Positions 2,629 through 64,000 of a DNA stretch of 64,000 nt are shown piece by piece. The notes under the pieces were generated by a model. That model saw only the letters and a list, made by a program, of their open reading frames with translations, ran no database searches and was not told the origin of the DNA. Origin of the DNA: an uncultured Anaerolineales bacterium (GTDB lineage Bacteria > Chloroflexota > Anaerolineae > CG2-30-64-16); NCBI GenBank assembly GCA_964551735.1, contig CAZKEF010000017.1, positions 31,007-95,006 on the forward strand. Reading direction: 5' to 3'. The position numbers and the translations under genes are program-made. Each line of letters starts with the position of its first letter. Positions within the stretch are counted from its first letter, which is position 1.

Positions 2629-3260
2629 CCCATCCCCAGCAGCGCGCGCGTCAATGCCGTGATGCCCGTGCCCAGGAAGCGGCCCAGGATGTCCAGCCGG
2701 GGCGAAACGTAACCGATGAGGAACAGCCCCAACAGGATCATCGGGCCGTACATCTGTAGCGGTTGCAAAACCTGCGCGGCGCGCTCGCCTATCACGCCGC
2801 GCAACACGCTGTTGCCATCCAGCGGCGCCAACGGGATCAGGTTGAACAGGAACAGCGCCACGTTGATGGCGACGAACCTCCAGAAGAAATCGAGCACGTC
2901 GGACGGCATCCCGGCCAGCAGCCCCAGCCGCCACGGCACGGCCACCAACGCGGCCATCAGCAGGTTGCTGGCGGGGCCCGCGGCCGAGACCAGCGCATGG
3001 CCCACCCGCGGCCCGAAACGCAGCCGCCATGGGTTCACCGGCACCGGCTTGGCCCAGCCGATGAAGCTCGCCACGAGCAGCAGGGAGCCGACCGGGTCCA
3101 GGTGCGCCAGGGGGTTGAGCGTCAGCCGGCCCTGCCGCGCAGCCGTGTCATCGCCCAGGAGGTAGGCCGCGTAGGCGTGCGCGGCTTCATGGATCGGAAA
3201 GCCGACCAGGAGGATGACGAGCTTGGCGAGCAGGGAAGGGAGATCGAAGAAATCGAGCAA
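2625..3260 (-). CDS. site-2 protease family zinc metalloprotease (peptidase M50)
   Basis: HEAAH zinc motif inside TM helix, LDG motif, polytopic membrane profile. Confidence 0.65.
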   Translation of the reverse strand: MLDFFDLPSLLAKLVILLVGFPIHEAAHAYAAYLLGDDTAARQGRLTLNPLAHLDPVGSLLLVASFIGWAKPVPVNPWRLRFGPRVGHALVSAAGPASNLLMAALVAVPWRLGLLAGMPSDVLDFFWRFVAINVALFLFNLIPLAPLDGNSVLRGVIGERAAQVLQPLQMYGPMILLGLFLIGYVSPRLDILGRFLGTGITALTRALLGMG

Positions 3261-3395
3261 GAAAACCTCTTTGAAAACGGCTCAGCCTGTTCCTACCGTG
3301 GCAAGTATACGATGCGCATGAACCTATGTCAAACCCATCCCGCGCGGCCGCCCATCAGCTTACCTTTTTGCCCTTGCACGTGCTATCATCACACC

Positions 3396-6077
3396 ATGAC
3401 CCGCCGCACCCTTGACCTCAGCACCCTGCCCTGGCAGTTCGGCCCCGTCGAGCGCCAGCCGTTTACTGCGCAGCCGGCCGATGACCGCGCGGCCGCGGCC
3501 GAGTGGCTGCCTGCACGCGTGCCCGGCGACGTGCGCGCGGACCTGATCGCGGCCGGCCGCATCCCACCCCTCGACACGCCCGAAGGGATCGCCGCGGGCG
3601 CGTGGATTGATGACCGCGATTGGTGGTATCGCGTGACGCTGCCCGGCGGCCTTGCGCCGGATGAGGTTGCGATCCTGGAAGCGGACGGCATTGACTTCTA
3701 CAGCGCGATCTGGCTGGATGACCGCCTGCTCAGCACGCACGCGGGGATGTTCAGCCGGCAGACGGCCGTTTTGACACCCACCTTGAACGCTCCCGGCCCG
3801 CACGAGTTGGCGATCCGCATCTGGGGCGCGGGCGCGCTGCCGAGGGGGGCGAACCGGCCCTGGCGCCGGGCGATCCGTTGGCTGCTGGGTAAGGTCAGCC
3901 CGGCGGCCGAGTACTTCCCCGACCGGCTGCTGACCCCCAAAGCGCAGTTCAGCTTCGGGTGGGACTTCGCCCCGCAGGTGCTCAGCACGGGCATCTGGGA
4001 CGAGATCCGGTTGGTGGTGGCGCGGGGCGCGTATGTCGAGGATCTGTGGGTGGAGGCAGAGCCGGTAGTGGGAGAAGGTGAGCAGAGGGGCGGAGGAGCA
4101 GGGGCGCGGAGGAGCAGGGGGGCAGAGGAGAAAGGGAGCGGGGGAGAAGCAGAGACAGTCATGGCGCGCTTTCGCATGCACTTGCGTTTGCGACGCTGGC
4201 GGGCGCGGCCTTTGCGCGTTGATGTTTCAATCGTCCGCGCACACGACGCTTCATTGGCAACCGATGTCACACTCAGTTACTCATCCCACCGCGGCAACGT
4301 GCGCCCAGAACGACAGCTCTCTTATGTCATGCTGAACGGGTCCACAATTCAAGACACATTGCAGCGCACCACCAGTGAAGCATCTCCACAATGGGAGTTT
4401 CCTGCTGGCGTCACCGAAGAAGATCTCGCTTTAGAGTGCGACCTTCCCGCCGCGCGGCTCTGGTGGCCGTGGGATCAGGGCGAGCCGTGCTTGTACCGGG
4501 TGACCGTACGGCTGGTGGGCGATGACAGCGTGCTGGACGAGGTCAGCCGTGTGGTGGGCGTGCGTTCCGTGCGCCGGGAGCCGCTGCCGGAGGGCAACGG
4601 CTGGCGCTTCGTGATCAACGGCCGGCCCGTTTTCCTGCGCGGGGCCAATTGGGCGCCGGCCGACCTGCTGCCAGGGCGTGTGACCCAGGCTGACTACGAG
4701 CGGCTGCTGGCCCAGGCGCGCTCGGCCGGGATCAATTTCCTGCGCGTGTGGGGCGGCGGGGTGCGCGAAAAGCGCTCGTTCTGGGAGACGTGCGACCGGC
4801 TGGGGATCATGGCGTGGCAGGAGTTCCCGCTGGCCTGCACGTTCCTGGATCACTACCCACGGGATGGAACTGGTTCTGAGGATTGGACGCGGACGAGCGC
4901 GGATGAACGCGGACAGTTCAGATTTTCCGCGCTTGTCCGCGCTCGTCCGCGTCCACACCCAATCACATCCGGTGATGCGAGCAGCTACCTGGCGCTCCTG
5001 GCCTCGGAAGCGCGAGGGATGATCCGGGCGCTGCGCAACCATCCCAGCCTGATTGCCTGGTGCGGCGGCAACGAGATCAACCCCGGTCGCGAGCGCCTGC
5101 CCCTGGCCGCCATCCAGAACGTGCTGGCCGAGGAAGACCCCGACCGGCCGTGGCTGCCCGCGTCGCCGGCTGCGGGGGACGTACACCGCTGGGACGTGTG
5201 GCACGGCTTCGCGCCGTGGACAGCACTCCAACACGAAACCGCGGGGCTGGTGAGTGAGTTCGGCCTGCAGGCGTTGCCCGATCCGGCCACCGTGGCCGAG
5301 ATGTTCCCCGACGGCAACCCGACGGGCCTGACCGACCCGCGCTGGGCCGGCCGCAAGGCCCAGGTCGCCAAGCTGCTGCACTACGCCGGCCCCGAAGCTG
5401 CCAGCCCCCTCGACCGCGCCATCGCCGCCACCCAACGCGCGCAAGCGGCCGGGCTGCAGGCGGGCATCGAAGCGTGTCGCCTGCGCAGGACGACAGAAAA
5501 CGGGACGCGGATGAACGCGGACGGACGCGAAAGACTCCCAGAAGACAGTTTCCGCGCTTGTCCGCGCTCGTCCGCGTCCCATTCGCTGCCAGGCTGCGCG
5601 GGGGTGGTCTTCTGGCAGTTTAGCGAGCCGTGGCCTGCGGTGAGCTGGGCCGTGATTGACCGCGCGGGTCGGCCCAAAGCGGCCTACGCCATGCTCCAGC
5701 GCTGCTTCCAGCCCGTCCTGATCGCCGCGCGTTTCCCCTGGCGTCGCTACGCCGTAGGCGACACCTTCGCCGCCGAAATCTGGCTGGTGAACGATGGGCC
5801 GCTGGCCCGCGCAGGCTGCCGCGCTGAAGCCGCGCTGGATGGCCAGGCGGTTTGGGCAGAGGAAGGGATCGCGCTGCCCGCGGCCGGCAGCGTCCAGGCC
5901 GGCGAGTTGACGGTCAAGCTGGAGGCCGCGCCGCGCGCCCTGGCCCTGCGCCTGCTCTGCGCGGGTGAGGTGCTGGCGACCAACATCTACGACCTGGCGG
6001 TCCACCTGCCCGGCCGGCAGCCGTTGCGCCCGCGCATCCTCCAATGGATCGCTGAACTGCTTTTGATGTCCCGTTGA
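3396..6077 (+). CDS. glycoside hydrolase family 2 (beta-mannosidase-like) with three in-frame repeat insertions
   Basis: ATG at 3396 (residue 212 of track ORF; upstream part overlaps M50 gene on other strand). GH2 N-terminal sugar-binding region (LPWQFGPV...WLPARVPGDV...WWYRVT), TIM-barrel region (INFLRVWGGG...WQEFPLAC... CGGNEI). Reading frame stays open across a G-rich minisatellite (4072-4155) and two palindromic elements (4885-4954, 5501-5579). Confidence 0.65.
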   Translation: MTRRTLDLSTLPWQFGPVERQPFTAQPADDRAAAAEWLPARVPGDVRADLIAAGRIPPLDTPEGIAAGAWIDDRDWWYRVTLPGGLAPDEVAILEADGIDFYSAIWLDDRLLSTHAGMFSRQTAVLTPTLNAPGPHELAIRIWGAGALPRGANRPWRRAIRWLLGKVSPAAEYFPDRLLTPKAQFSFGWDFAPQVLSTGIWDEIRLVVARGAYVEDLWVEAEPVVGEGEQRGGGAGARRSRGAEEKGSGGEAETVMARFRMHLRLRRWRARPLRVDVSIVRAHDASLATDVTLSYSSHRGNVRPERQLSYVMLNGSTIQDTLQRTTSEASPQWEFPAGVTEEDLALECDLPAARLWWPWDQGEPCLYRVTVRLVGDDSVLDEVSRVVGVRSVRREPLPEGNGWRFVINGRPVFLRGANWAPADLLPGRVTQADYERLLAQARSAGINFLRVWGGGVREKRSFWETCDRLGIMAWQEFPLACTFLDHYPRDGTGSEDWTRTSADERGQFRFSALVRARPRPHPITSGDASSYLALLASEARGMIRALRNHPSLIAWCGGNEINPGRERLPLAAIQNVLAEEDPDRPWLPASPAAGDVHRWDVWHGFAPWTALQHETAGLVSEFGLQALPDPATVAEMFPDGNPTGLTDPRWAGRKAQVAKLLHYAGPEAASPLDRAIAATQRAQAAGLQAGIEACRLRRTTENGTRMNADGRERLPEDSFRACPRSSASHSLPGCAGVVFWQFSEPWPAVSWAVIDRAGRPKAAYAMLQRCFQPVLIAARFPWRRYAVGDTFAAEIWLVNDGPLARAGCRAEAALDGQAVWAEEGIALPAAGSVQAGELTVKLEAAPRALALRLLCAGEVLATNIYDLAVHLPGRQPLRPRILQWIAELLLMSR
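4072..4155. repeat. G-rich octamer minisatellite (GGAGCAGG/GGGGAGCA-type units), in-frame inside GH2 gene
   Basis: Tandem 8-nt units readable directly; encodes GEGEQRGGGAGARRSRGAEEKGSGGE; related arrays at 6241-6300, 6908-6960, 11778-11820. Confidence 0.6.
4885..4954. repeat. palindromic MITE/RPE-like element copy 1 (arms GGACGCGGACGAGCGCGGA / TCCGCGCTCGTCCGCGTCC), in-frame in GH2 gene
   Basis: Left arm ggacgcggacgagcgcggatgaacgcggac, right arm ttccgcgcttgtccgcgctcgtccgcgtcc are reverse complements; encodes WTRTSADERGQFRFSALVRARPRPH. Confidence 0.7.
5501..5579. repeat. palindromic MITE/RPE-like element copy 2, in-frame in GH2 gene
   Basis: gggacgcggatgaacgcggacggacgcg ... ttccgcgcttgtccgcgctcgtccgcgtccc; same arms as copy 1; encodes NGTRMNADGRERLPEDSFRACPRSSAS. 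Confidence 0.7.
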
Positions 6078-6112
6078 CATATCGCACGGTTTGGGCTATC
6101 CTACAACTTGTC

Positions 6113-7201
6113 ATGCGCATCGTCATCAACGGCTGGTTTCACGATCAACTTGCCACCGGCAGTGGCCAATACCTCGCCGCCCTGGCCGAGTGGCTGCCGC
6201 GCGTTGGGCAGGAGCATGAGTTTGTGGTGGTGCAACCGGGCGGGGGAGCAGAGGGGCGGAGGAGCAGGGGAGCAGGGGAGCAGGGGGGCAGGGGGGCACC
6301 TGAGTACGGCGAATCGGTGAATCAGCGAATCAGCGAGTCAGCGAGTCAGCGAATCGGCGAATCTCGAAAGACACCATCCGCCATTCGCCATTCGCTATTT
6401 GCTATTCGAACCCCCTTCGACCGCCTCGACCCGAATCTGGCCAAGCTCTGGTTCGAACAGGTCGGGTTCCCCCTGGCGTGCCGGCGGCTGCGGGCCGATG
6501 TGGCGTTCGTGCCCTATTGGGGCTCGCCGTGGTGGTCCCCCTGCCCGGTCATCGTTACGATCCATGACCTGATCCCGCTGCTGCTGCCGCAGTACCGGGG
6601 CGGGCCGCTGCAGCGCGCGTACACGGGGCTGGTGGGCCGGGCCGCGCGCCGCGCGGCCTCGGTGCTCACCGATTCCGAGGCCAGCAAGCGTGACATCATG
6701 GCGCACCTCCGCATCCCGGCCGAGCGCGTCCACGCGATCCACCTGGCGGCCGACCCGCGTTATCGCCCCGTGACCGATCCCGCGACGCTGGCAACCGTGG
6801 ACACAAAGTACAACTTATCGGACAGGCCGTTCGTATTGTATTTGGGCGGTTTCGACGCGCGGAAGAATGTGGTGCGGATGGTGGAGGCGTATGCGCGGCT
6901 GGTGGAACAGGAGCCAGGAGGCAGGAGGCAGGGGGCAGGGGGTGGGGGGCAGGGGACCGGGGTCAGGTTGGTGATCGCCGGGAAGTTGCCGGAGGTGGAC
7001 AGCGCGTTCGCGCCTGACCCGCGGCCGGTGGTGGCGCGGCTGGGGCTGGCGGAGCGGGTGCATTTCACCGGCTGGGTGGACGAGGCGGACAAGCCGGCCC
7101 TCTATTCGCTGGCGGCCGCGACGGTGTTCGTGAGTGAGTACGAGGGGTTCGGCCTGCCGGTGTTGGAGGCCATGGCGTGTGAATCTCCTCCCGAAATGTA
7201 G
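6113..7201 (+). CDS. GT4 family glycosyltransferase, apparently truncated shortly after the EX7E motif; carries in-frame minisatellite insertions
   Basis: ATG at 6113; GT4 N-domain then ...YEGFGLPVLEAMACESPPEM* stops about 12 aa after EAMA where GT4 enzymes normally continue about 90 aa; stop is immediately followed by MITE-like element E1; possible pseudogene/disrupted gene. Confidence 0.5.
   Translation: MRIVINGWFHDQLATGSGQYLAALAEWLPRVGQEHEFVVVQPGGGAEGRRSRGAGEQGGRGAPEYGESVNQRISESASQRIGESRKTPSAIRHSLFAIRTPFDRLDPNLAKLWFEQVGFPLACRRLRADVAFVPYWGSPWWSPCPVIVTIHDLIPLLLPQYRGGPLQRAYTGLVGRAARRAASVLTDSEASKRDIMAHLRIPAERVHAIHLAADPRYRPVTDPATLATVDTKYNLSDRPFVLYLGGFDARKNVVRMVEAYARLVEQEPGGRRQGAGGGGQGTGVRLVIAGKLPEVDSAFAPDPRPVVARLGLAERVHFTGWVDEADKPALYSLAAATVFVSEYEGFGLPVLEAMACESPPEM
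6241..6410. repeat. composite minisatellite: GGGGAGCA octamers x~6, then GAATCAGC octamers x~6, then CCATTCG heptamers x~5 (in-frame in GT4 gene)
   Basis: Direct reading of tandem units; same composite organisation (G-rich octamers followed by A/T-richer units) recurs at 11778-11878. Confidence 0.6.
6908..6960. repeat. G-rich tandem repeat (GGAGGCAG / GGGGGCAG units) in-frame in GT4 gene
   Basis: ggagccaggaggcaggaggcagggggcagggggtggggggcagggg; encodes EPGGRRQGAGGGGQG. Confidence 0.5.
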
Positions 7202-7340
7202 CGGAGCACCCTGAGCGGAGCCGGGTAGGGCTCCGGCGGAGTCGAAGGGTGCAGAGCGGTCGTCGCGCAAGGCCGCATCCTTCGACTGGTGATCATTTGT
7301 CAAGTAGGTTAGTTCGTAGACCCGCTCAGGATGCTTGCTC
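7202..7340. repeat. MITE-like element E1 with terminal inverted repeats containing CCGCTCAGG(A/G)TGCT core and an internal hairpin (gtcgaagggtgc...gcatccttcgac)
   Basis: Left end gagcaccctgagcgg is inverted copy of right end ccgctcaggatgcttgctc; reverse complement of E1 aligns along its length with element E2 at 8850-9050. Confidence 0.45.
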
Positions 7341-7388
7341 CTTTTCCAAACAAGCTGCTTGTCGCTTTGGATTCTAGTCGGAGTTCTA

Positions 7389-8828
7389 ATGCCCAACCAG
7401 GACAGCCTGAACCGGGCCGTAAGCAACATCTTGGGGCGCACTTTTAACCTGCGCCGCGACCAAAACCTGCTGGTCTTCGTCGAGGCAGGCGCCCTGGAGG
7501 TCGTGGAGGCGCTGGCGCGGGGCGGTCGCGAGCTGGGGATCTCCGTAACTGCTTTCTTCGTGCCGCGCGTCTTACAAACCGAGAGCCGACAGGGGAAGGG
7601 GCTGCCGCTGCCGGTCGAGGCGGCCATCCGTGAGGCCGACGCCATCCTGAGCTGCCTGTCGGACCAGCCGGAGCTGCGTGATTATGGGCTGCGGGTGCTG
7701 CACACGAGCTGGAGCCGCCGCGCCAAGGTGGCCCACGCGCCAAACCTCACCCTGGAGGGCTTGCGCCTGGCCGATGTGGACTACAACCCGCTGGCGGAAC
7801 AGGCCCGGGTTCTGGCGCTGACGCTGATCCTGGGCAAGCGCATCGAGATCGCCACCACCGACAGCCGCAAGCAGGAGCACCGGCTGAGCCTGCGTATCAG
7901 CGGATGGAGCAACCCGCCCGGCATCAACGACGGCGTGCTGCGCGACGGCTCGTGGGGCGACCTGCTGCCCGGCCAGGTCTACATCGTGCCGCGCACCGGC
8001 GAGGGCCAGATCGTGGTCAACGGCGCCCTGCCGGGCCGGGTGCTCGGCGCCAACGAGGAGCTGATCCTCACGTTCCGCGATGGCCGGCTGGCCGGCATCG
8101 AGCCGGAAGACAGCCCGGCGGCCCGGCATCTGCGCGACACGCAGTTTGCTTATGCCGAGCGTCGCGGGGACCCCAATTGGGGCAGCCTGGCCGAGATCGG
8201 CTTCGGCCTCAACCCTGCCGTGCAAGACCTCTGCGGGGTCAGCGCGATGGACAACAAAAAAGCGCACACCATCCACATCGGCCTGGGCCAGAACACCACC
8301 ATCGGCGGCGACATCGAGTCCCTGATCCATTGCGACCTGGTCATCCGGCGGCCCACGGTCTTCGTGAACGGCCGCCTGATCATGAAGCGCGGGGACTGGC
8401 GGATCAACGAGGCCGACTGGCGCCTGGATCATCGCACGGCCGCCGCGCCGGCCGGCTGGTGGGATCAGTTGGCCCTCTTCGGCCGGAGCGGGGTGCGCAC
8501 CGAGCGCGAGGGTGGGCGGCTGATGTGCGCGTGGAACGCGGGCCGAGGCCGGTGGGACAGCGCGGCGGTCGGCGTCGAGGGGACCGCGCGGCTGGCGGCA
8601 CGGCTCTATGACCTGCTGCCGGAGACCGGCGCCCTGGTGCCTCGTGACCGGCTCCTGGCCGACGCCACAGATGCCAGCATCCCGGAGGGGGTCTTGCCGG
8701 GGCTGTTCTGGGTATTGCAGCAGTTCGACCTGGTGCGGCTGGTGGCCGGCGGCGAAGCCGCGGCCGGCGCCCCGCGACCGGCGGGGAGCGGGAATCCTGT
8801 CTTGCGCCGGCACGTGGGGCCGGTGTAA
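7389..8828 (+). CDS. M29-family aminopeptidase (AmpS / aminopeptidase T-like) with about 130-aa C-terminal extension
   Basis: ATG at 7389; C-terminal signature AHTIHIGLGQNTTIGGDIESLIHCDLV matches M29 HIAxG...GGN.S.IHxD motif region. Confidence 0.55.
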   Translation: MPNQDSLNRAVSNILGRTFNLRRDQNLLVFVEAGALEVVEALARGGRELGISVTAFFVPRVLQTESRQGKGLPLPVEAAIREADAILSCLSDQPELRDYGLRVLHTSWSRRAKVAHAPNLTLEGLRLADVDYNPLAEQARVLALTLILGKRIEIATTDSRKQEHRLSLRISGWSNPPGINDGVLRDGSWGDLLPGQVYIVPRTGEGQIVVNGALPGRVLGANEELILTFRDGRLAGIEPEDSPAARHLRDTQFAYAERRGDPNWGSLAEIGFGLNPAVQDLCGVSAMDNKKAHTIHIGLGQNTTIGGDIESLIHCDLVIRRPTVFVNGRLIMKRGDWRINEADWRLDHRTAAAPAGWWDQLALFGRSGVRTEREGGRLMCAWNAGRGRWDSAAVGVEGTARLAARLYDLLPETGALVPRDRLLADATDASIPEGVLPGLFWVLQQFDLVRLVAGGEAAAGAPRPAGSGNPVLRRHVGPV

Positions 8829-8849
8829 GTTGCCTTACAGCAAGGAACT

Positions 8850-9050
8850 CCCTTATGTCACGGCTTTGCCGTGAGCGGGTTAACGACTCAAAGCTCATTA
8901 CGGCAAATGTCCAGCGAAGCATCTATCAGGCCGAAGCTTCTCTTGCACTGCGACGAGACCCTTCGCTGGAATCGCGCCGCAACGCACCTCACGGGACGGA
9001 CCCGCTCAGGGTGACAGAAGCAAGTTTCGCGGTATTGCGTTGTCTTTGCT
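8850..9050. repeat. MITE-like element E2, inverted relative to E1, in 5' UTR of ATPase operon
   Basis: cgtgagcgggttaacgactcaa ... ccagcgaag...cttcgctgg hairpin ... gacccgctcagggtgacagaagcaag aligns with reverse complement of E1. Confidence 0.4.
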
Positions 9051-9063
9051 AAGGAGCGTCATC

Positions 9064-10602
9064 ATGTTTGCCACCAAGACGCCGTGGCGCCAGCAGATGC
9101 CGGAGTTCCTCCAGTTCCTGGAGGCCGACCTCGGGCATCCCGTCCGCCTGCACGAAGAGGTGCTGGGCTACCACCTCTACTTCCTTGACCTGTCCGATTG
9201 GAAGCTGCGCTTCTCCGATCGCACCCCGGTGATCTGGGTGACAGCCAACGACCTGGCGGCCATGTCGGTCCGCGAGCTGGCCCAGAGCCTGGCCGACGTG
9301 GTGCGCGCCCGCAGCCTGGCCGAGCGCAACCCCATCGTCGCGCTGCCGGGGCCGGGCGTGGAGCTGCACACGCTGATCAGGACCGCGTACCTGCCGCTGC
9401 TGATCCTCGACCAGGACGCGCAGCGGGCGGTGCGCGAGTCGCGGCGCCCCTCCGGCGAGCTGCTGGATCGGCTGAGCGCCCAGCTCGACCTGTCGCTGCT
9501 GACCCCTTACGAGACCAGCAAGCCCGTCACCGGCTCGCGCTTCTTCGGCCGCGAGTTCGAGATCCGGCGCATCCTCCAGTCCAACGACACCAACTTCGCC
9601 ATCATGGGCATCCGGCGCATCGGCAAGACCTCGCTCATGCGGGAGATCGAGCGCCAGCTCCGCAACCAGGCGCAGGATGGCGGCGACGAGAACGCGCAGG
9701 AGCGCATCCTTTTCATGGATTGCAGCGCGCTGAGCTCGCCCGCCGGCTTCGTCCAAGAGATCGTGCGCAAGCTGCGGCCGCAAGAGCTCACCCGGTTGTC
9801 CAGCAAGCAGTATCCCATCTTCTTCCCCGACTTCCTGGAGCGCATGGCGCAGCGCTACGGCGGGCCGGTGGTGTTCTTCCTGGACGAGTTCGACAAGGTG
9901 CTCACCTGGCACTACGAAGATGACACCCTGCTGAACGCGCTGCGCGCGTCCAGCAACCAGGGGCACTCCCGCTACATCGTCGGCGGATTCCGCGAAGTGA
10001 TGCGCGCGTTCTCGGACCTGGAATCGCCGCTGTACAACTTCGCCCGGCCCATCCGCCTGAAGGAGTTCAGCCGCGAGCAGGCGGCCGGCCTGATCTTGGG
10101 CCCGCTGGAGCGGTTGGGGGTGCGCTTCGAACGGCGCAACGATGTGGTCAACCGCATCTTCGACGAGACCGCGGGCCAGCCCAACCTGGTGCAGTTCTAT
10201 TGCAGCATCCTGGTGGAGCGGCTGGATCGGGAGGGCGTGCGCGTTGTTGCGCCGGAGAGCCTGTTCGACGTCTACACCAACGACGACTTCCGCGCGTTCG
10301 TGCTCAGCACCTTCATGGACAACACCACCCATCTGGAAAAGGCCATCGTCTTCGCGGTCATGGCCGACATGGACGCGGAGATGCCGTTCAGCGTCAAGGC
10401 GATTGACGACGCGTTGGAGCGCCGTGGCGTCGAGGTGCCGCTTTCGGACCTGGACCTGGCGTGCCGCAACCTGGAGCTGGCCGGCACCCTCACCGCCCGC
10501 GGCCCGCTCTACCGCTTCGCCACCCCCGTCTTCCCGCGCATGTTGAACGAGAACTATGATGTGGGGTATTTGTTCAAGAAGGTGGTGCAGGAGGGGATTT
10601 GA
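9064..10602 (+). CDS. AAA+ ATPase of the Arch_ATPase (PF01637-like) type with C-terminal winged-helix-like region
   Basis: ATG at 9064 preceded by AAGGAG; FFGREFEIRRIL then Walker A GIRRIGKTS, Walker B VVFFLDEFD; TTGA stop/start overlap with next gene. Confidence 0.6.
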   Translation: MFATKTPWRQQMPEFLQFLEADLGHPVRLHEEVLGYHLYFLDLSDWKLRFSDRTPVIWVTANDLAAMSVRELAQSLADVVRARSLAERNPIVALPGPGVELHTLIRTAYLPLLILDQDAQRAVRESRRPSGELLDRLSAQLDLSLLTPYETSKPVTGSRFFGREFEIRRILQSNDTNFAIMGIRRIGKTSLMREIERQLRNQAQDGGDENAQERILFMDCSALSSPAGFVQEIVRKLRPQELTRLSSKQYPIFFPDFLERMAQRYGGPVVFFLDEFDKVLTWHYEDDTLLNALRASSNQGHSRYIVGGFREVMRAFSDLESPLYNFARPIRLKEFSREQAAGLILGPLERLGVRFERRNDVVNRIFDETAGQPNLVQFYCSILVERLDREGVRVVAPESLFDVYTNDDFRAFVLSTFMDNTTHLEKAIVFAVMADMDAEMPFSVKAIDDALERRGVEVPLSDLDLACRNLELAGTLTARGPLYRFATPVFPRMLNENYDVGYLFKKVVQEGI

Positions 10603-13600
10603 GCAATAGTGTCTCTTCCTGGCAGATTATTTCCTGCACAGACACCGCGTCCTTCAAACGCGTGCGCGTCCGCGACGACGCGCGCATCCAGGCCGTGGTG
10701 CGCCACCTGCAGGCGGATGAGTGCGTGGCGCTGTTGGGGCCGCCTCTCAGCGAGAAAAGCCACCTGCTGCACGACATCGCGGACGCGCTGCGGGCCACCG
10801 AGCGCTTCCTGCCGCTCTACCTGGACCTCTGGCGCGCCAACTCGGAGGACGAGGCGGTCTTCTTCACCAGCGTGGCCCGGCTGATCGCGGACGCGCTGGC
10901 CGCGGATCCGCTGCGCCGGGGTGCGGTGGCGCCGGTGGAAGGGGTGGCCGACCCGCGCGACTTTCAACGTTTTCTGACGGAACGCGCCGGCCGCAATGGC
11001 GCGTCCCCGCCGGCCGGCGGCCTGAACCTGGCGCTGCTGATTGACCACCTGCAGGCGCTGCCGCATGACCTGGTCCACAGCCTGCTGCTGGCGCTCCGTT
11101 CCACCTACATGGAGCGCGAGGCGGACGCGCCGCATCAGGTGGTGGCCGTGGTGGCCGGCGGCATGAACCTGGTCGGCCTCTCCACCGGGCCCACCTCCCC
11201 CTTCAACATCGCCAAACCGGTGGTGGCCGCGCCGCTCACCGAGGCCCAGAGCCGCGCGCTGGCCGAGGCCAGCCTGGCGGCCGCAGGCTGCCACGCCTCG
11301 GCCCAGGGGCTGGCGCGGCTGCTCGCCTGGGCTGGGGGCGACCGCTACCTGCTGCCCCGCCTGTGCGCGTGGAGCGCCGCGCTGGTGCAAGACTATCGCC
11401 GCCCGGTGGTCACCTGCCCCGTGGTCGAGCGCGCGGCCGAGCAGGTCTGGCGCGCAGCCGAGATCTTGCCCCCCGTCCGCGAAGCCATCCGCATGATCGA
11501 AGAAGATCCGGACAGCATGCTGGACATCCTGCACCTGCTGGATCACGGCGCGCTGCCCCGCGCCCGGGCCCGGCAGATGATCACCCGCACCGGCGCCGAC
11601 CGGCTCCAGCTCTCCGGCGCGGTCACGCTGGCCGAGGGGTGCTACCTGCTGATCAACCAGGCGTACCGGCTGGCGCTGGCCGAGCACTTCACCACCGAGC
11701 GCGTCGGCCACGTCCTGCGCATTGCCGGCCGCTGGGAGGAGGCGATCCAGTACCTGGCGCCGAGGTTGGCGGTCGAGCAGGGGAGCAGGGGAGAGGGGGA
11801 GCAGGGGAGAGGGGGAACGGGCGACGCAGCACGCAGCGTTCAATCCGAAATTCGCAATTCACAATCCGCAATCCATTCCGCCCGCCCCCAACTCCTCGAA
11901 GCCATCGTCCAGTCGCTGTATGCAACCGATTCGGTCGAGCAGGGATGCGAGACCCTGGCGAACGGCCTGCGGCTGGGTTTCGGGCTGGCGCAGGTCTCGA
12001 TCTACCTGGCGAACCCCGCACAGGGCCGCCTGGACCTGGCTTACCCGCCCGCGCGCGCCACCGGCCCCATCGGCCACCAATCTACCAATCCCCAATCTAC
12101 CAATCCCCAATCTACCGCCTCCGTTGACCTGAACGACCCGGCCTGCGTCGAGGCGCAGACGTACCATTACGGCAACTATGCGCTGCGCGGCACGGCCGAC
12201 GACGCGCGGCTGGTGGCGGCCCTGGCCTCGCAGAACCGGCCGCTGGGCGTGGTCACGGTGGAACACTACATCCAGGCCCGCGACCCGCACACCCTCCCCG
12301 ATGAGCTGCCCGACCTGCTGGGCTTCCTGCACCACGCGGCCGGCGCGCTGGAGAACGTGATCTTCCGGGCCGCGTACCGCGCCATCGGCCAGGCTGTGCT
12401 GGACGCCCGCGCGCTGCAGCCCACGGTCGAACGCGTGCTGAGCGCGGTCTGCGATGCCCTGGGCAGCCACTATGCCGTCCTCTACCTGGTGGACGACACG
12501 GGGCGGACGCTGGAGATGGCGGCCGGCGTGGGCCGGCCGGTCACGCCGGCGTGGCAGGCGGCGGCCCGGTTCTCGCTGGCGGGCCGGCACCCGGCCGCGG
12601 CCGCGCTGCGCGACCAGCGCCTGCAATCCGTGCGCGGCACTGCGGACGGGCCGGACGCGCCCCTGATGGAGCGATTGGGGCTGCACAAGCACACCCGCGT
12701 CTTCCTGCCGTTGGCCGCGGCCAGCGAGGCGCTGGGCACGCTGGAGCTCGGTTACGCGGCCGGCGCGCGGCTCCGCCTGACCGAAGCGGCCCGGCGCACC
12801 TACACCGCGTTCGCCAACCAGGTCGCCATCGGCGTCCACAACATGCAGCTCCTGCGCCGCACCGACGAAGCGCTGACCCGCAAGATGGCCGAGATCTCCG
12901 TGGGCCGCGAGATCCAGCTCAGCCTGCTGCCGAGGTCATGCCCGGCCGTGCCCGGCTGGGACTTCGCCGCGCTCTACCAGGCCGCGCGCATCGTCGGCGG
13001 CGACTTCTACGATTTTTGCGAATTACCCGGCCAGCCCCAGCGGCTGGGCATCGTGATCGCGGACGTCGCGGACAAGGGGGTGCCCGCGGCGCTGTTCATG
13101 GCCCTCAGCCGCACGGTGATCCGCACGGTGGCGCTGAGCGGCCGCGGCCCGGCCGCCGCGCTGATGCGGGCCAACGACGTGATCATGAACGACAGCCAGG
13201 CCGAGCTGTTCCTGAGCGCGATCTACGCGGTGCTGGAGCCCGAAACCGGCCGGCTGACCTACGCCAACGCGGGCCACAACCGGCCGCTGTGGGTTCACGC
13301 CGGGGACGGCACGGTGACCGAGCTGGATCAGCCCGGCATCGTGCTGGGCGCGTTCGAGCACATCGCGCTGACGGAAGGGCAGATCGATCTGGCGGCCGGG
13401 GACGTGGTGGTGTTCTACACCGACGGCATCAACGAGGCGATCAACGCGGACGGCGAGCAGTTCGGCGACGACCGGTTGCGCGACGCCGTGGCTGCGGCCG
13501 CAGCGGGGGGTACGGCGCAGGACGTGCTGACCGCCATCACTGCCGCGCTGGCCGCGTTCGTCGGGGAGACGGAGCAGGCGGATGATGTGACGGGGGTGGT

Positions 13601-13616
13601 GGTGAGGCGGGGGTAG
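10599..13616 (+). CDS. multidomain signalling phosphatase: degenerate P-loop NTPase-like N-domain + GAF + PP2C/SpoIIE serine phosphatase
   Basis: Probable TTG start overlapping upstream stop; N-domain has degenerate Walker A (GPPLSEKSH) and Walker B-like LALLIDH; C-terminus has SpoIIE/PP2C motifs (GIVIADVADKGVPAALFMA ... FYTDGINEA); carries in-frame repeat insertions at 11778-11878 and 12077-12116. Confidence 0.6.
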   Translation: MSNSVSSWQIISCTDTASFKRVRVRDDARIQAVVRHLQADECVALLGPPLSEKSHLLHDIADALRATERFLPLYLDLWRANSEDEAVFFTSVARLIADALAADPLRRGAVAPVEGVADPRDFQRFLTERAGRNGASPPAGGLNLALLIDHLQALPHDLVHSLLLALRSTYMEREADAPHQVVAVVAGGMNLVGLSTGPTSPFNIAKPVVAAPLTEAQSRALAEASLAAAGCHASAQGLARLLAWAGGDRYLLPRLCAWSAALVQDYRRPVVTCPVVERAAEQVWRAAEILPPVREAIRMIEEDPDSMLDILHLLDHGALPRARARQMITRTGADRLQLSGAVTLAEGCYLLINQAYRLALAEHFTTERVGHVLRIAGRWEEAIQYLAPRLAVEQGSRGEGEQGRGGTGDAARSVQSEIRNSQSAIHSARPQLLEAIVQSLYATDSVEQGCETLANGLRLGFGLAQVSIYLANPAQGRLDLAYPPARATGPIGHQSTNPQSTNPQSTASVDLNDPACVEAQTYHYGNYALRGTADDARLVAALASQNRPLGVVTVEHYIQARDPHTLPDELPDLLGFLHHAAGALENVIFRAAYRAIGQAVLDARALQPTVERVLSAVCDALGSHYAVLYLVDDTGRTLEMAAGVGRPVTPAWQAAARFSLAGRHPAAAALRDQRLQSVRGTADGPDAPLMERLGLHKHTRVFLPLAAASEALGTLELGYAAGARLRLTEAARRTYTAFANQVAIGVHNMQLLRRTDEALTRKMAEISVGREIQLSLLPRSCPAVPGWDFAALYQAARIVGGDFYDFCELPGQPQRLGIVIADVADKGVPAALFMALSRTVIRTVALSGRGPAAALMRANDVIMNDSQAELFLSAIYAVLEPETGRLTYANAGHNRPLWVHAGDGTVTELDQPGIVLGAFEHIALTEGQIDLAAGDVVVFYTDGINEAINADGEQFGDDRLRDAVAAAAAGGTAQDVLTAITAALAAFVGETEQADDVTGVVVRRG
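11778..11878. repeat. composite minisatellite (GGGGAGCA/GGGGAGAG octamers then CGCAATYC-type units) in-frame in PP2C gene
   Basis: gcaggggagcaggggagagggggagcaggggagaggggga...caatccgaaattcgcaattcacaatccgcaatccattcc; encodes QGSRGEGEQGRGGTGD...QSEIRNSQSAIHS. Confidence 0.55.
12077..12116. repeat. tandem repeat CCAATCTACCAATCCC x2.5, in-frame in PP2C gene
   Basis: caccaatctaccaatccccaatctaccaatccccaatctacc; encodes HQSTNPQSTNPQST. Confidence 0.55.
13565..13616. repeat. direct repeat copy 1 (3' end of PP2C gene)
   Basis: gggagacggagcaggcggatgatgtgacgggggtggtggtgaggcggggg; near-identical copy at 15207-15258. Confidence 0.55.
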
Positions 13617-15258: not shown

Positions 15259-15308
15259 GGGAAATCAGTGATCCTGACCTGACTCTCAACACCTCAACCG
15301 TCGGCCAG

Positions 15309-16064
15309 TCAAGGATAGCATTGAGCGATAAAAGCTTTGTCTGTTTCGGACAGTTCGCTGTTCCATGCTATCTCTGTCCCGTCAAGCGTCCAGCGCTTGG
15401 GTATTGGATACACCATAATCGACTTCGGGTCAAACTGAGTGAATTGAGTCTGAGTAAACATATACCTGGCAAGCACGTTCTCACGAATAGTATACTCATC
15501 CCAGTTGTTCGGTGGGCCAGACAGGTCTTTTATCACAGCTTCTTCATTCCATTTCATACCAGAAGCAGGACTCTGGTGTTCATGAATTAAGCCCAGAGCA
15601 TGACCGAACTCATGCAGCACCACCCGCGAAAACTGTGCATCCACAGAGTCAGGTTTCAACCCACTAAGGTTCATTGTAGGTTGACTAAGCGGGACATCAA
15701 CAACCTCCATACCAACATAGGATGACGAAGGCTGATCGGACCTAAACGAGATGCGGATGTCCGCATTTGGGTAATAATCGTAACGGAATTCGAATCTGAG
15801 GTTCGCGTACTGAAGCCACTGCCTGGCGCAGACTTCTACCTGCTTTCGGACGCTCATGCTGCCGCCAATGAAGGTCACTCTTAGAAGTCGCCCAGGCTTC
15901 CAAAACCAGTTTTCGAGCCCGGCAGCCTGCAGAGGTGAAAGCATATTTCGCGGGTTTTCCGAAATCGCAAGTTGGCGTGCAAGGACATAGTCCGCATGAT
16001 GCACTGAGCGGTCAATACAAATGGACATTGATAACCTAGACATAGCACTTCTCACTTCCCCCAT
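15309..16064 (-). CDS. astacin-like metzincin zinc metalloprotease, no signal peptide
   Basis: HEFGHALGLIHEH (HExxHxxGxxHE astacin-type zinc site) and downstream Met-turn SIMVYP (astacin SxMHY); N-terminus hydrophilic, so predicted cytoplasmic. Confidence 0.55.
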   Translation of the reverse strand: MGEVRSAMSRLSMSICIDRSVHHADYVLARQLAISENPRNMLSPLQAAGLENWFWKPGRLLRVTFIGGSMSVRKQVEVCARQWLQYANLRFEFRYDYYPNADIRISFRSDQPSSSYVGMEVVDVPLSQPTMNLSGLKPDSVDAQFSRVVLHEFGHALGLIHEHQSPASGMKWNEEAVIKDLSGPPNNWDEYTIRENVLARYMFTQTQFTQFDPKSIMVYPIPKRWTLDGTEIAWNSELSETDKAFIAQCYP

Positions 16065-16121
16065 CCCATCGAATGTCGTGCCGAGAATGAGCTTCTTCTT
16101 CTGTGTATCTGGGTCTTCACA

Positions 16122-17297
16122 TCAACGATAGGGTAAGTCATCCCTGATTCGAGTTAGGATTGCTGTGATTGGAATACCTTCATTGCCCCTGATATAGGGT
16201 AGCAATGAAGGGCTAGGTGCTTCCGTTTCGCCATGATGCAGCGCAATAATGTCGCCATCCTTATCAAATACAGGTGCGCCGGAAGCGCCGTGCTCAGTAT
16301 GAGTCAAGTACTGCATCCGTCTCCTAGTAGTATCTATGATCAAGTTGTGGAATAAGGCGATCTTCTGGGGCTTGTATCCAGGGTACTGGACAACGAAAGC
16401 CACGCCATACAGTTTGGGAGTCTTCGGGACGAGTCGCACATATCCTATCTCCGGCATGTCTCCAGGTCGTCCCTCGATTCTTAGTAATGAAAAGTCAAGG
16501 TTCTCAGTATCACTTGAACGTACCACATGCTCAACCCAATACTCATACCCCTGCTCGAGAACTCCCTTGCTGCTATATCTGAACCTAAAGCGAACGCGAT
16601 ATGCACGCTGTTTAGCGTTCTTTGGCACAACATGGTTGCAGGTCAAGACTAGATCGGGAGCAACGGCGAATCCTGTCCCAACTGACCTTCCGTCGGGTTC
16701 TTCGATGCGGCAAGTGGCACTGCTGATTCGGCCTACCGACTCTGAAAAGGCAACTTCTAGGAGGTTGACCGTCTGTTGCCATTGACTAAGCATCGTATCT
16801 GGGGCCAATGAGCCATACCACGGGTAAGGAGCACGAGGTTGGTGCCAACCCAGATCAAAGAGCCTATCAGTGGGAGAGATCACTGGAAGAGGGAGTTTGA
16901 CTAGATTGGCAACCTTCTCTCTGAACCGAATCTCGCTGAAATCCTCTTTGAATATCACATCGCCATGATAATCTATCCTGACAGCAGTAGTTAGTTCGTA
17001 ATCTTCGCGCCGCGGGCAAAGACGTGCTCCGTCGGTCACAACCACAACCTTGATACCCCGGTTCACCGCTTTATCAATCATTTCGATGCAGTCTTGACGA
17101 ATCCGCGTATGATTATCTTCCCGATCGTTCAATTGTACATTAAGTACGGCAAGGTCAAGGTGCTCGGAGCGAATCAGACTAATGGCCTGAGATCGCTCGC
17201 TTTCACACAGGATTTCATGACCTAACGGCTCAAGAGCGTCATGAAGCTTATCCATGCGCCATTGTTGGTCATTATCAATGATTAGAATACGCGCCAT
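16122..17297 (-). CDS. response-regulator receiver domain fused to trypsin-like (S1-family) serine protease
   Basis: REC features: IIDND acidic pocket, D in HLDLAVLNV, VVVVTDG, K in IFKEDF. Protease triad: LTCNHVV (His), NLDFSLLRI (Asp), GASGAPVF (GDSGGP-like Ser). Confidence 0.6.
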   Translation of the reverse strand: MARILIIDNDQQWRMDKLHDALEPLGHEILCESERSQAISLIRSEHLDLAVLNVQLNDREDNHTRIRQDCIEMIDKAVNRGIKVVVVTDGARLCPRREDYELTTAVRIDYHGDVIFKEDFSEIRFREKVANLVKLPLPVISPTDRLFDLGWHQPRAPYPWYGSLAPDTMLSQWQQTVNLLEVAFSESVGRISSATCRIEEPDGRSVGTGFAVAPDLVLTCNHVVPKNAKQRAYRVRFRFRYSSKGVLEQGYEYWVEHVVRSSDTENLDFSLLRIEGRPGDMPEIGYVRLVPKTPKLYGVAFVVQYPGYKPQKIALFHNLIIDTTRRRMQYLTHTEHGASGAPVFDKDGDIIALHHGETEAPSPSLLPYIRGNEGIPITAILTRIRDDLPYR

Positions 17298-17330
17298 ATC
17301 AATCTCCGTCAGTTGTTGTCACAAAAAACG

Positions 17331-18152
17331 CTATGATACGACGCGGAGGCCGCTGAGTGCATTCCGTATTGCATCCCGATATCTAACTGGGGAGAACTTA
17401 TGCTTATCCACATAGTAGCACGCCCCATAGTTTCGATATGACTCGCGTATATGCACTGGCGTACCATGTCCGGAGCTAACAATAACCTGAGTAAACCTTC
17501 CCCGTGCATGGTCCAATTCTCTAAGTAGACTCATCAAATACAACCCTTCATAATTCGACTCATCATTTTCAGCTAATCTCAGATCACAAATAACCAGATC
17601 GTAACTTTGCTCCGTAAGGCTCTTCTCCGCTGCAGTGCGACTCGTAGCCGTGTCTATCCTAGCCATTGTTGGTAACGAATCCACCAAGGTCTTAAGCCAG
17701 GTTGGATCATCATCAATTACCAAGACAGTGCCGCTAGAAGTCACTAGAAGTTCACGTCTGTTTGTAACAAGGCGCACAGCGGCGAAAGACTGATCGACCA
17801 GAGCTACGAGTTGATCCTCGTCGTATGGTTTGCCTACACAGTCAAAGGCGCCTTGCTGAAAGACAGATCCCAACTCCTCCAGAGGAGGGTCAACGGCATA
17901 CAGTACAACAGCAGGTATACAGCGATCGGATAACGCGCTCAAGAACCAACGATCCTGAGTTAATGTGTCAAAGTCAACCAGTGTTATAAGATGCTGCAGT
18001 GCGTCGCCTAGGGCATTGAGAATTGCTCGGGCGCTATCTGGCGACGAGGCTGTGGCAACTTGATAGTCTGCCTCGCGCAGTGTAGTGCTGGCGAAATCCA
18101 GCCAATCCTTCTCAGAGTCAACGATCAGCACTTGACTGGCTTCCGTGTTCAT
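17331..18152 (-). CDS. tandem receiver-domain (REC-REC) response regulator without output domain
   Basis: Two REC units: VLIVDSEKD...LVDFD...K and VLVIDDDP...DLVICDLRL...VIVSSG...K. Confidence 0.6.
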   Translation of the reverse strand: MNTEASQVLIVDSEKDWLDFASTTLREADYQVATASSPDSARAILNALGDALQHLITLVDFDTLTQDRWFLSALSDRCIPAVVLYAVDPPLEELGSVFQQGAFDCVGKPYDEDQLVALVDQSFAAVRLVTNRRELLVTSSGTVLVIDDDPTWLKTLVDSLPTMARIDTATSRTAAEKSLTEQSYDLVICDLRLAENDESNYEGLYLMSLLRELDHARGRFTQVIVSSGHGTPVHIRESYRNYGACYYVDKHKFSPVRYRDAIRNALSGLRVVS

Positions 18153-18154
18153 AT

Positions 18155-28648: not shown

Positions 28649-28819
28649 TAATACAGGACCTCTTAAGTCATTTGAATCCCCATGCGGTGGAGAACCACTC
28701 GAAACGCCGAGAAAAAATCTCAGGTCAGAACCCGAATTTCAGAAGTTGCATAAACAGAACACATGTGCTAACCTTGGCTCTAGATCCATCCTGCCACGCC
28801 CGACACTTGGAGGTACAAA

Positions 28820-29062
28820 ATGGCACTAGACATGTGGTTCAAGGAAGATATCAGAAACGTACTCCTATCACTCAACCTGGTTTCAGCAGCCACAAGTCGG
28901 TGGGTTCAAGACGCACGCTTGGATGCCTATCGTCACGGTTATGAAGAGGCGATCGCTGCGGTGGCGCTGGCTTTTGGCCTACCGCCACGTTCGGTGCTCG
29001 GAAAAGATAGAGAGCAAGGCAGCGAATACGACGTGTCTTGGGACCTCAAACTACTGCCCTGA
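28820..29062 (+). CDS. small hypothetical protein (80 aa), divergent from island operon
   Basis: Good RBS GGAGG 7 nt upstream of ATG; no recognisable motif. Confidence 0.3.
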   Translation: MALDMWFKEDIRNVLLSLNLVSAATSRWVQDARLDAYRHGYEEAIAAVALAFGLPPRSVLGKDREQGSEYDVSWDLKLLP

Positions 29063-29077
29063 CATGTGGCTTGCCAG

Positions 29078-31235: not shown

Positions 31236-31289
31236 GAAGCAACCTCATCTCGCTAAGTCATCACGCAAAAGATAAGACCCACACAAGGC

Positions 31290-61863: not shown

Positions 61864-64000
<2,137 letters not shown>

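Follow-up and report, generated by a model that had tools for sequence, protein, structure and literature searches.

In-frame arrays of 7-8-nt tandem repeats within genes of an Anaerolineae-type genome: insertions at variable protein loops and their place in a wider class of repeats

Tandem repeats with units of 7-8 nucleotides (nt) are an acknowledged yet unexplained feature of some bacterial genomes and have so far been treated as intergenic. The question raised here is how arrays of such units came to lie within the reading frames of three unrelated genes, encoding a GH2-family glycoside hydrolase, a GT4-family glycosyltransferase and a GAF-SpoIIE (PP2C-type) phosphatase, on a 64-kb stretch of DNA (the window) from an Anaerolineae-type (Chloroflexota) metagenome-assembled genome (MAG). 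We favor the reading, with a probability of roughly 0.6, that they are 7-8-nt (sometimes 10-nt) simple sequence repeats of the class formed by short tandemly repeated repetitive (STRR) elements and G-quadruplex (G4) repeats, which reside inside genes in this Anaerolineae lineage through local reiterative copying and purifying selection.

An earlier note on this DNA had described most of these arrays, and Tandem Repeats Finder (TRF) recovers every one that it named. At a period of 7-10 nt, at least 2.8 copies and a TRF score of at least 40, nine arrays were observed in the window, whereas 30 block-wise dinucleotide shuffles averaged 0.03; the tandem arrays are non-random and chance is excluded. 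Eight of the nine sit within the GH2, GT4 and PP2C genes, and the window total comes to 11 arrays with at least seven unit types, all but one of them (10/11) intragenic. Like STRR sequences, they consist of head-to-tail 7-8-nt units in three or more copies, far above chance expectation. The host genes and their arrays are as follows.

3393-6077, plus strand: GH2-family glycoside hydrolase (Pfam Glyco_hydro_2_N2, Glyco_hydro_2 and Glyco_hydro_2_C), with a reading frame open from 2763
4070-4146, plus strand: GH2 G-rich octamer array (GGGAGCAG-type) with periods 8/16/32 (TRF; a 16/32-nt super-period), translating to VGEGEQRGGGAGARRSRGAEEKGSGGEAE
6113-7201, plus strand: GT4-family glycosyltransferase (Pfam Glyco_transf_4 and Glycos_transf_1)
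6238/6243-6298, plus strand: GT4 insert 1, left G-rich arm, GGGGAGCA x7.0 (TRF)
6309-6363, plus strand: GT4 insert 1, middle array, GCGAATCA x6.9 (TRF), read as ...NQRISESASQRIGES...
6374-6408, plus strand: GT4 insert 1, C-skewed right arm, CCATTCG x5.0 (TRF)
6908-6967, plus strand: GT4 insert 2, heptamer array of CAGGAGG/CAGGGGG x7.6 (TRF, period 7 nt)
10599-13616, plus strand: GAF-SpoIIE (PP2C-type) phosphatase (Pfam SpoIIE and GAF)
11775-11816, plus strand: PP2C insert 1, left arm, an array of GGGGAGCA/GGGGAGAG (TRF unit GGGGAGCAGGGGAGAG x2.3)
11841-11874, plus strand: PP2C insert 1, C-skewed right arm, CAATCCG x4.9 (TRF)
12077-12116, plus strand: PP2C 15-nt array (TRF), unit CCAATCTACCAATCC x2.7, composed of the 8-mer CCAATCTA and the 7-mer CCAATCC

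These arrays measure 77, 56, 55, 35, 53, 40, 34 and 40 nt as delimited by TRF. They are imperfect (65-87% matches), with 100% matches at 12077-12116, where both sub-units are built on a CCAATC core and the encoded segment is HQSTNPQSTNPQST. The earlier description needs correction in two details, at 6908-6967, where the period is 7 nt instead of 8, and at 12077, where it is 15 nt. The composite layout, in which a G-rich array is followed by other 7-8-nt arrays, was described correctly. CCATTCG comes close to the reverse complement of GCGAAT, the core of the GT4 left arm, and the G-rich blocks of GT4 are extra left-hand arrays beside a convergent pair at 6300-6415.

The three host open reading frames (ORFs) run uninterrupted across the eight arrays and across two hairpins described below, and their Pfam domains (GH2, GT4, GAF plus SpoIIE) agree with the view that the arrays lie in frame within unrelated genes. 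No array unit contains a stop codon in any of the three sense frames. Because stops occur on the antisense strand of GCGAATCA (TGA, in every frame) and of the 15-mer, these two could persist only in the orientation seen; the antisense strand of GGGGAGCA is also stop-free, and the sense bias of its arrays is therefore not explained by stop codons. The frame rule suggested in the earlier note, namely that units are repeated a multiple of three times, does not describe the data: no single array has a length or copy number that is a multiple of three, and it is the total insert that preserves the frame. Despite this the host ORFs are intact. Approximately nine independent inserts can be counted in the window (the arrays, the GH2 hairpins, a further hairpin within an antiporter gene, and a short run of GGGGAAT units in the gene for a PfkB kinase), and all are frame-preserving, an outcome with a chance of ~(1/3)^9 if frame were irrelevant. 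Since about nine of nine inserts keep the frame, the host genes are probably functional and the inserts probably translated. The encoded loops are of low complexity, as had been predicted, and rich in Gly, Glu, Gln, Ser, Arg, Ala and Asn; examples of peptides that span junctions are ...VVVQPGGGAEGR... and ...NQRISESASQR....

Alignments of orthologs show the arrays as gaps in all three proteins, in line with the original proposal, and show that arrays and array pairs are lineage-specific insertions at loops that vary among orthologs. The GT4 orthologs range from 297 to 398 amino acids (aa), and the differences in length lie mainly at two loops and in a hypervariable C-terminal tail (alignment A1). 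Site 1 is located between the beta-strand HEFVVV and TPFD, and site 2 between ...EAYARL and LVIAGK; the peptides ESANRRI, IRNPQSA, TQYPIPN, GVRGQES and PDSCPLT fill these sites in various orthologs, and P0036, P0068, P0077 and P0113 have little or no insert at site 1. The AlphaFold model of GT4 (from A1) predicts both inserts to be disordered loops: the predicted local distance difference test score (pLDDT) drops under 50 over residues 46-91, which are flanked by strands 36-42 and 93-98, and over residues 270-280, which are flanked by helix 249-265 and strand 285-290. The arrays themselves occupy mid-gene positions, at residues 43-103 and 264-282 of GT4 and at ~390-430 of PP2C. The PP2C orthologs are 900-1011 aa long, and the site YLAPR|...|ARPQLLEA is empty in seven of them; in the others it is filled by different peptides of 5-60 aa, likewise of repeat origin. 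The HQSTNPQSTNPQST segment, with ~14 extra residues, is exclusive to the window's PP2C protein among the aligned orthologs. For GH2, homolog matches in an exhaustive HMMER search are interrupted three times, each break coinciding with a repeat insert (query residues 226-343, 492-530 and 700-733); the G-rich array and both hairpins are gaps in all nine homologs (alignment A2), and ~26 aa corresponding to the array are missing from homolog P0224.

The 3' end of the GT4 gene has a peculiarity of its own. The protein and all 18 orthologs in A1 stop right after the EX7E motif (...EYEGFGLPVLEAMAC; window 7160-7201), and so are without the usual GT4 C-terminal region of ~70 aa; residues past the motif are hypervariable. 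An intron is unlikely to be the cause, because Rfam finds none. Across the whole window, an Rfam scan at gathering thresholds gave nothing, with generic hairpin look-alikes only, at E-values up to 1, and on this basis known RNA families or introns were rejected as the identity of the arrays. The spacer 3' of GT4 contains an inverted repeat (7205-7218 / 7322-7335). In L001, an assembly with a 73% GT4 ortholog, the gene that follows GT4 lies on the opposite strand.

The orthologs also give the inserts an age. Site 1 of the L001 GT4 ortholog (73% aa identity) keeps the array order of the window with other copy numbers, and consists of a degenerate G-rich block, GCGAATCR x8.4, a similar spacer and YATTCGC units. 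Site 1 in contig L124 contains GCGAATCA x5, CCGAATCA x3 and CGCAAYA x6, the G-rich block being absent, and the PP2C insert site of the same contig carries GAGAGCGG x5 followed directly by CGCACCA x8.4. A TRF survey of 27 GT4 genes, 24 of them from metagenome loci, found arrays filling both loops in ~20 orthologs down to ~57% identity and none in more distant orthologs. At site 1 the left arms are G-skewed (CGGCGAAT, GAGGAGCC, GGGAGCGG) and the right arms of orthologs C-skewed (CCATTCG, AATCGCA, ACGCAAC, TCACGCA). The units at site 2 follow one theme (CAGGGGG, CAGAGGT, TCAGGAG, GGTCAGG, GGGGTCA), with a complementary right arm in several orthologs, such as TCAGGAG x9.7 followed by CCTGATC x4.6. 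Arrays that occupy the same loops with drifting units are therefore old inserts that remain periodic, and older inserts decay. The PP2C insert (~50 aa, 5% of the length) accounts for 16-24% of the variable columns in equal-length clusters. The word "invading", used in the earlier note, is hence too strong for arrays that in GT4 are orthologous down to ~57% protein identity and evolve in place.

The same observations make it hardly conceivable that the arrays were created or collapsed by an assembler. Although the window does come from a metagenome-type assembly, arrays at the same codons recur in independent assemblies, comprising three GCA assemblies (L001-L003), the ENA contig L124 and ~20 JGI/ENA metagenome contigs, and the ORFs are intact.

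Whether the arrays vary rapidly is a separate matter, as the earlier note had proposed contingency-like variation. Contingency loci, such as those of Haemophilus, Neisseria and Campylobacter, are perfect 1-5-nt repeats, usually near the 5' end of a gene, that vary between sibling cells. By analogy, slippage would toggle the GH2, GT4 or PP2C gene or rapidly vary its linkers, and so vary surface polysaccharide within a population. The window arrays are likewise intragenic, with 7-8-nt units that are not multiples of 3, so that a change of one unit shifts the frame, and two hosts belong to the carbohydrate-active enzymes, a class in which phase variation is typical. Lengths at the insert sites differ between sequences that are ~81-97% identical, and the PP2C orthologs P0150 and P0153 are locally frame-shifted beside the insert site. 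However, the arrays are imperfect and located mid-gene, not in the 5' part of the ORF or in the promoter, and they are stable between near-identical genomes. Our strain comparison used three near-identical MAGs of the 73% ortholog (L001, L002, L003) and five 90%-identity clusters. Between the three assemblies we found 12-15 substitutions and a few 1-nt indels per 11-21 kb, with arrays identical and copy number equal, and within the five clusters (4-8 distinct full-length sequences each, 90.5-99.9% identical) there was no change in length. Length differences are seen only between sequences ~81-97% identical, and the indels of GT4 and PP2C clusters are at the insert sites, in the GT4 C-terminal tail or at differently called N-termini. 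A metagenome scan with the window's own GT4 protein gave full-length matches of at most 69% identity only. In addition, like arrays occur in murD, mutS, an antiporter gene and a kinase gene, of which murD and mutS are non-surface housekeeping hosts, and Rehm et al. were equally negative about phase variation of related repeats (PMC4692102). We consider contingency variation very unlikely. Linker length appears to vary on a species-level time scale, not as a fast switch; the claim of length-variable linkers thus stands between related species and falls among the three near-identical MAGs and the five clusters.

As to the frame-shifted PP2C orthologs, P0150 and P0153 are out of frame from the array site onward, over ~35-70 codons, and back in frame near the second array site. 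In L124, a syntenic relative, the GH2 gene is split into two ORFs (3228-5618 and 10001-12928 are the regions noted, with P0150 and P0153). Compensating repeat-length changes or sequencing errors could account for the shifted frames; sequencing error is likely, because the contig name suggests a long-read assembly and GH2 is split as well.

The window is one instance of a far wider class. A scan for GGAGCAGGGGAGCAGGGGAGCA, one genome per species, returned at least 120 loci. Among the matches listed, ~80% of the loci with GGGGAGCA arrays belong to Nostocales or other filamentous cyanobacteria; Chloroflexota are represented by Anaerolineales, Promineifilum, Caldilineaceae, Ardenticatenaceae and Chloroflexia, and further matches come from Planctomycetota (Phycisphaerales), Acidobacteriota, Methylomirabilota, a Trueperaceae MAG, three actinomycetes and one Ottowia genome. 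The octamer recurs in genomes of 41-74% GC. In the loci listed, to which the counts that follow also refer, the distribution of TRF periods has its maxima at 7 nt (375 rows) and 8 nt (229 rows), and units known from STRRs also occur. When the G-rich strand is read 5' to 3', a partner array (period 6-10 nt, within 120 nt) lies downstream in 56 of 105 cases and upstream in 6, and downstream partners are mostly pyrimidine-rich. GC skew in 135 unoriented adjacent pairs changes from positive to negative in 91 and in the reverse order in 2, and the left unit is closer to the reverse complement of the right unit than to the direct unit or a shuffled partner (p ~1e-9). The typical organisation is a convergent pair, in which a G-skewed array is followed by a short spacer and a C-skewed array that approximates its reverse complement.

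Within Chloroflexota the units are specific to each locus (TGACGAA/TCGTCAT, CAAGTAA/CACTTGC, AAGATTG/AATCTTT, TGGAAGGT/CAGCCTTC), and 13 other loci from this phylum hold 1-11 arrays per 4-23 kb. Of 69 Chloroflexota arrays, 48 (~70%) lie within ORFs that extend for 60 codons or more to either side, an approximate figure given that high GC inflates chance ORFs. Hosts confirmed by Pfam include murD, a PUA-SAM methyltransferase (rRNA-methyltransferase-like), an O-antigen ligase-TPR protein and a YfhO-type membrane protein. The mutS gene of a Phycisphaerales MAG (L116, 5110-5230) carries a 30-aa in-frame G-then-C composite, GGEQGSRGAAEQRKNDDPCPPPPLLPSSPSLS, directly before the Walker A motif LITGPNMAGKST. 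Of 41 ORF-spanned arrays, 37 have GGGGAGCA on the sense strand, and the G-rich arrays in the three window genes are all on the coding strand, inside ORFs. For intergenic cyanobacterial arrays, a same-strand stop codon lies within 120 nt upstream in 14 of 49, which fits the findings of Rehm et al. and is not decisive.

Several composites recur in the scanned loci. In Nostocales (L007, L015, L059, L079 and L111), (GGGGAGCA)n is followed by the semi-conserved spacer AGTAAGTTTTT, (CCCCTCTG)n and (TGCCCAA)n. In Acidobacteriota (L010, L092 and L123; Sulfomarinibacteraceae and relatives), the order is (GGGGAGCA)n, the core GACRCGMYCCTTATCAYG, other arrays and (CCTTTCCC)n, and this composite has the appearance of a genuine family of dispersed elements whose arms are tandem repeats. 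Arrays of GGGGAGCA were also found in 48 viral contigs (L125-L172), mostly from one ~54-61 kb family with 61% GC that has (GGGGAACA)3(GGGGAGCA)3 at a conserved position; longer arrays occur in other viral contigs, such as one of 11 matches followed by (GGGTTGGGT)n in L132. GCGAATCR arrays occur in just four viral contigs. Phages were considered as vectors, and the viral-contig scans established no link to Chloroflexota.

The window also contains a hairpin element that the earlier note did not list, built from 10-nt units (GGACGCGGAYRAACGCGGA ... TCCGCGCYYGTCCGCGCTCGTCCGCGTCC) and present in 3.5 copies, two of them strong hairpins in the GH2 gene.

4884-4955, plus strand: hairpin copy 1, 10-nt units ACGCGGACGA... 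/ ...TCCGCGCTCG, in frame in GH2
5505-5579, plus strand: hairpin copy 2, in frame in GH2 (fold z -5.9)
62218-62286, plus strand: hairpin copy 3, the third full copy (self-BLAST), in frame (fold z -4.1)
50242-50272: half copy, just upstream of the Shine-Dalgarno sequence of a minus-strand gene starting at 50219

The arms are 29-31 nt long and 93-100% identical between copies, and RNA folds range from -46 to -64 kcal/mol (z -4 to -10). The copy at 4884-4955 has 30-nt arms that are 90% complementary and folds at -63.6 kcal/mol (z -10), while the right arm of the copy at 5505-5579 is identical over 31 nt to 4924-4954. The host of the third copy is a Mrp/Nuo-type antiporter subunit gene (Pfam Proton_antipo_M on the spanning ORF). 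The G-rich arrays of GH2 and GT4 are related in a similar fashion: 4080-4125 and 6246-6291 align in register over 46 nt with an identity of 93.5%, and they share an exact stretch of 25 nt for which chance expectation is none.

We infer that the arrays arise and stay periodic by local reiterative copying, that is, by replication slippage. The second arm would be generated by fold-back or template switching, with occasional copying between nearby arrays, and transposition of a fixed element would not be the origin. Further multi-unit or compensated changes would keep the periodicity; an 8-nt array beside a 7-nt array would permit a frame-neutral step of 15 nt, comparable to the super-unit at 12077-12116. 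Purifying selection would then eliminate versions that shift the frame, contain stops or fall in structured regions, leaving near-neutral insertions in hydrophilic loops that would later decay to ordinary low-complexity linkers. A number of points weigh against this reading. Translation is deduced solely from frame conservation, and slippage by a single 7- or 8-nt unit breaks the frame, so that pure arrays in essential genes would need multi-unit or compensated steps. Neither the 91:2 G-then-C polarity nor the recurrence of an identical octamer across phyla at 41-74% GC follows from slippage alone, and plain slippage does not account for the tolerance of G4 motifs and of hairpins of -46 to -64 kcal/mol within ORFs. 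The 46-nt match between GH2 and GT4, together with the dispersed hairpin copies, shows that some copy-and-paste process is at work. Finally, consensus MAG assemblies hide minority variants in the comparison of strains.

The polarity of the pairs could be accounted for by a dedicated form of DNA synthesis. Convergent pairs would then not be traces of ordinary slippage but scars of a break or stalled fork at which a G-rich 7-8-nt unit was added reiteratively to both 3' ends, in a telomerase-like manner or by fold-back priming, before these were joined, an idea that we regard as quite unlikely. Three observations would fall into place with such synthesis: the polarity of 91:2, units that are specific to each locus, and the way in which nearby arrays cluster and are copied. 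If true, it would be common to filamentous cyanobacteria, Chloroflexota, Xanthomonas and others, and would be a major source of new disordered segments in Chloroflexota proteins, even in housekeeping enzymes.

The dispersed hairpins and the GH2/GT4 match raise another alternative, a miniature mobile element with tandem-repeat arms, in the style of a miniature inverted-repeat transposable element (MITE) or a Rickettsia palindromic element (RPE), of which in-frame copies survive. Along with the 46-nt match and the near-identical 29-31-nt arms of the 3.5 hairpin copies, this alternative could draw on the Nostoc spacer AGTAAGTTTTT, semi-conserved between GGGGAGCA and CCCCTCTG arrays, on the core GACRCG..CCTTATCA that lies between arrays and is common to three Acidobacteriota loci, and on the presence of one octamer across phyla and in phage contigs; in-frame palindromic insertion is moreover documented for RPEs (PMC10969869). 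The Chloroflexota units are nevertheless locus-specific, and the arrays in GT4 and PP2C are old, orthologous features that did not arrive recently. Reading by eye showed no target-site duplication at the flanks of arrays or hairpins and no fixed terminus at the flanks of arrays, the PP2C composite has no middle array and no fold (z +0.6), and self-BLAST of the window found no dispersed copies of the GCGAATCA, CCATTCG, CAATCCG or 15-nt arrays. We judge a mobile origin of the arrays to be unlikely.

It is also conceivable that nucleic-acid structure is what has been selected, with G4s or hairpins in the sense strand regulating transcription, mRNA stability or ribosome speed at domain boundaries and with an incidental peptide. 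Predicted G4 motifs, defined by a regular expression (at least four tracts of G3+ spaced by 1-7 nt), are located at 6267-6296, 6931-6962 and 11780-11821, and these arrays make up three of the five plus-strand motifs in the 64 kb; the GH2 array at 4070-4146 has fewer than four perfect G tracts and leaves the expression unmatched. The sense-strand preference (37/41), the energies of the hairpins and the location of inserts between domains or secondary-structure elements agree with such a role, as does the G4 formation in vitro and the four-unit preference of related repeats (PMC4692102). Within the GT4 composite, only the A/T-richer pair at 6300-6415 folds, as a long imperfect hairpin (RNA fold z -3.25). 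A hairpin from the whole GT4 composite was rejected, since shuffled sequences fold about as well as the DNA of 6230-6420 (z -0.92), and the PP2C composite likewise folds no better than shuffles. Arrays are wholly absent from many orthologs, so that a conserved function is not required; unit sequences drift, old inserts decay, and Rehm et al. did not find a regulatory role (PMC4692102). Selection for structure therefore appears improbable as the explanation of the arrays.

A further run, GGGGAAT x2.9 on the plus strand (51144-51163), is in frame within the minus-strand PfkB kinase gene, where it is read as ...DDFPIPHFPV...; its G-rich strand is antisense there.

If the preferred reading of local copying and purifying selection within a known repeat class is adopted, the nearest relatives deserve comparison. 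STRR heptamers of heterocystous cyanobacteria were reportedly described by Mazel et al. in 1990, and a 1997 report by Vioque is said, by its title, to concern an STRR tolerated inside a functional RNase P RNA gene. The window arrays share with STRRs the tandem heptamers, the many unit types, and a dispersed, lineage-enriched distribution, and STRR units are found alongside GGGGAGCA arrays in the listed loci from Nostocales. In contrast to the STRRs of cyanobacteria, which are intergenic or in an RNA gene, the window arrays lie in protein-coding genes of Chloroflexota (10/11 intragenic). Rehm et al. 2015 found that G4-forming heptamer arrays of GGGAATC in Xanthomonas and GGGGAYT in Nostoc are abundant, with a preference for four units and 70-75 convergent pairs per Xanthomonas genome; the arrays lie near stop codons on the sense strand, at sites that are conserved while length varies between species (PMC4692102). 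The same authors reported a bias to non-coding DNA, with under-representation on the coding strand of ORFs, formation of G4s in vitro, no indication of phase variation and no regulatory role, and they cite a polymerase-slippage hypothesis for the heptamer excess (PMC4692102). The window arrays resemble these repeats in their G-rich 7-8-nt units with a G3-4 tract, ~4 or more units, convergent pairs and unrelated gene classes, as well as in a length that varies between related species at a conserved site with no indication of phase variation. They differ in being nearly all inside ORFs, on the sense strand and putatively translated, in pairing the octamer GGGGAGCA with the non-G4 arrays GCGAATCA and CCATTCG, and in their phylum, Chloroflexota.

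Other systems are more distant. RPEs are families of ~150 bp with conserved sequence and encoded peptide, for which in-frame insertion in genes is known (review, PMC10969869). Like them, the repeats described here include palindromes in frame in unrelated metabolic genes, tolerated as surface peptides, and the likeness is strongest for the hairpins at 4884-4955, 5505-5579 and 62218-62286; unlike RPEs, most window arrays are locus-specific, evolve in place and are tandem, not a unique palindrome. The TAACTGA heptamer arrays of Beggiatoaceae, Cyanobacteria and Bacteroidetes (MacGregor 2015, PMC4679880) are a further case of one heptamer in distant phyla whose transfer route is not known, with a minority in ORFs, at the protein periphery. 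They lie mostly just upstream of start codons and have forward stops, whereas the window arrays are mid-ORF and stop-free. Four-unit GGGACCG elements occur within and between genes of Geobacter metallireducens (PMC2700814); these are one fixed family read as regulatory RNA, and an in-frame or ortholog analysis is not reported there. In-frame residence of such arrays in protein genes, or their occurrence in Chloroflexota, was not found in the searchable literature, which is incomplete for cyanobacterial repeats.

While the class itself is known, the novel element, as judged from sequence, would be its intragenic, sense-strand location with several arrays per gene, extending to murD and mutS of relatives. 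In Chloroflexota the class appears to live in genes, to be translated and to persist at the same loops across a clade while remaining periodic, and it reaches core enzymes such as MurD and, in the Phycisphaerales MAG, MutS. Through arrays of this kind, one origin of new disordered loops and linkers in bacterial proteins becomes visible and can be dated. The arrays also carry a warning for annotation, in that peptides such as ESANQRI, GEQGSRGA and IRNPQSA in these phyla stem from repeats. The strict G-then-C polarity of pairs over several phyla provides a handle on how the arrays form.

The array region has a GC content of 66-71%, and its five ORFs all run in the same direction. The assignment to Anaerolineae follows from the source names attached to homologs. 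The two that are not array hosts are the following.

7389-8828, plus strand: ORF of 479 aa with no Pfam hit, also kept after GT4 in L124
9064-10602, plus strand: STAND-type NTPase

The 479-aa ORF is flanked by two non-coding spacers of ~200 nt (7190-7390 and 8830-9060). The sequence GACCCGCTCAGG is found in both, at 7319 and 8999, a weak observation, as the same count was obtained in 5 of 100 shuffles. Downstream lies an island of 47-55% GC on the minus strand (window ~15300-32700), compared to 66-71% in its flanks, which encodes multi-GAF histidine kinases, response regulators, a trypsin-like protease, a truncated AlaRS-like protein and an SPFH protein; TRF found no census-grade 7-10-nt arrays in this island, only three weak short repeats. 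Next to it, a 1409-aa protein with six lamin-tail domains (33072-37301, minus strand) contains repeats at 34162-35092 and 35103-35214, which consist of a 456-nt tandem duplication and arrays of 12, 18 and 36 nt. This is an ordinary in-frame domain repeat, separate from the 7-8-nt arrays.

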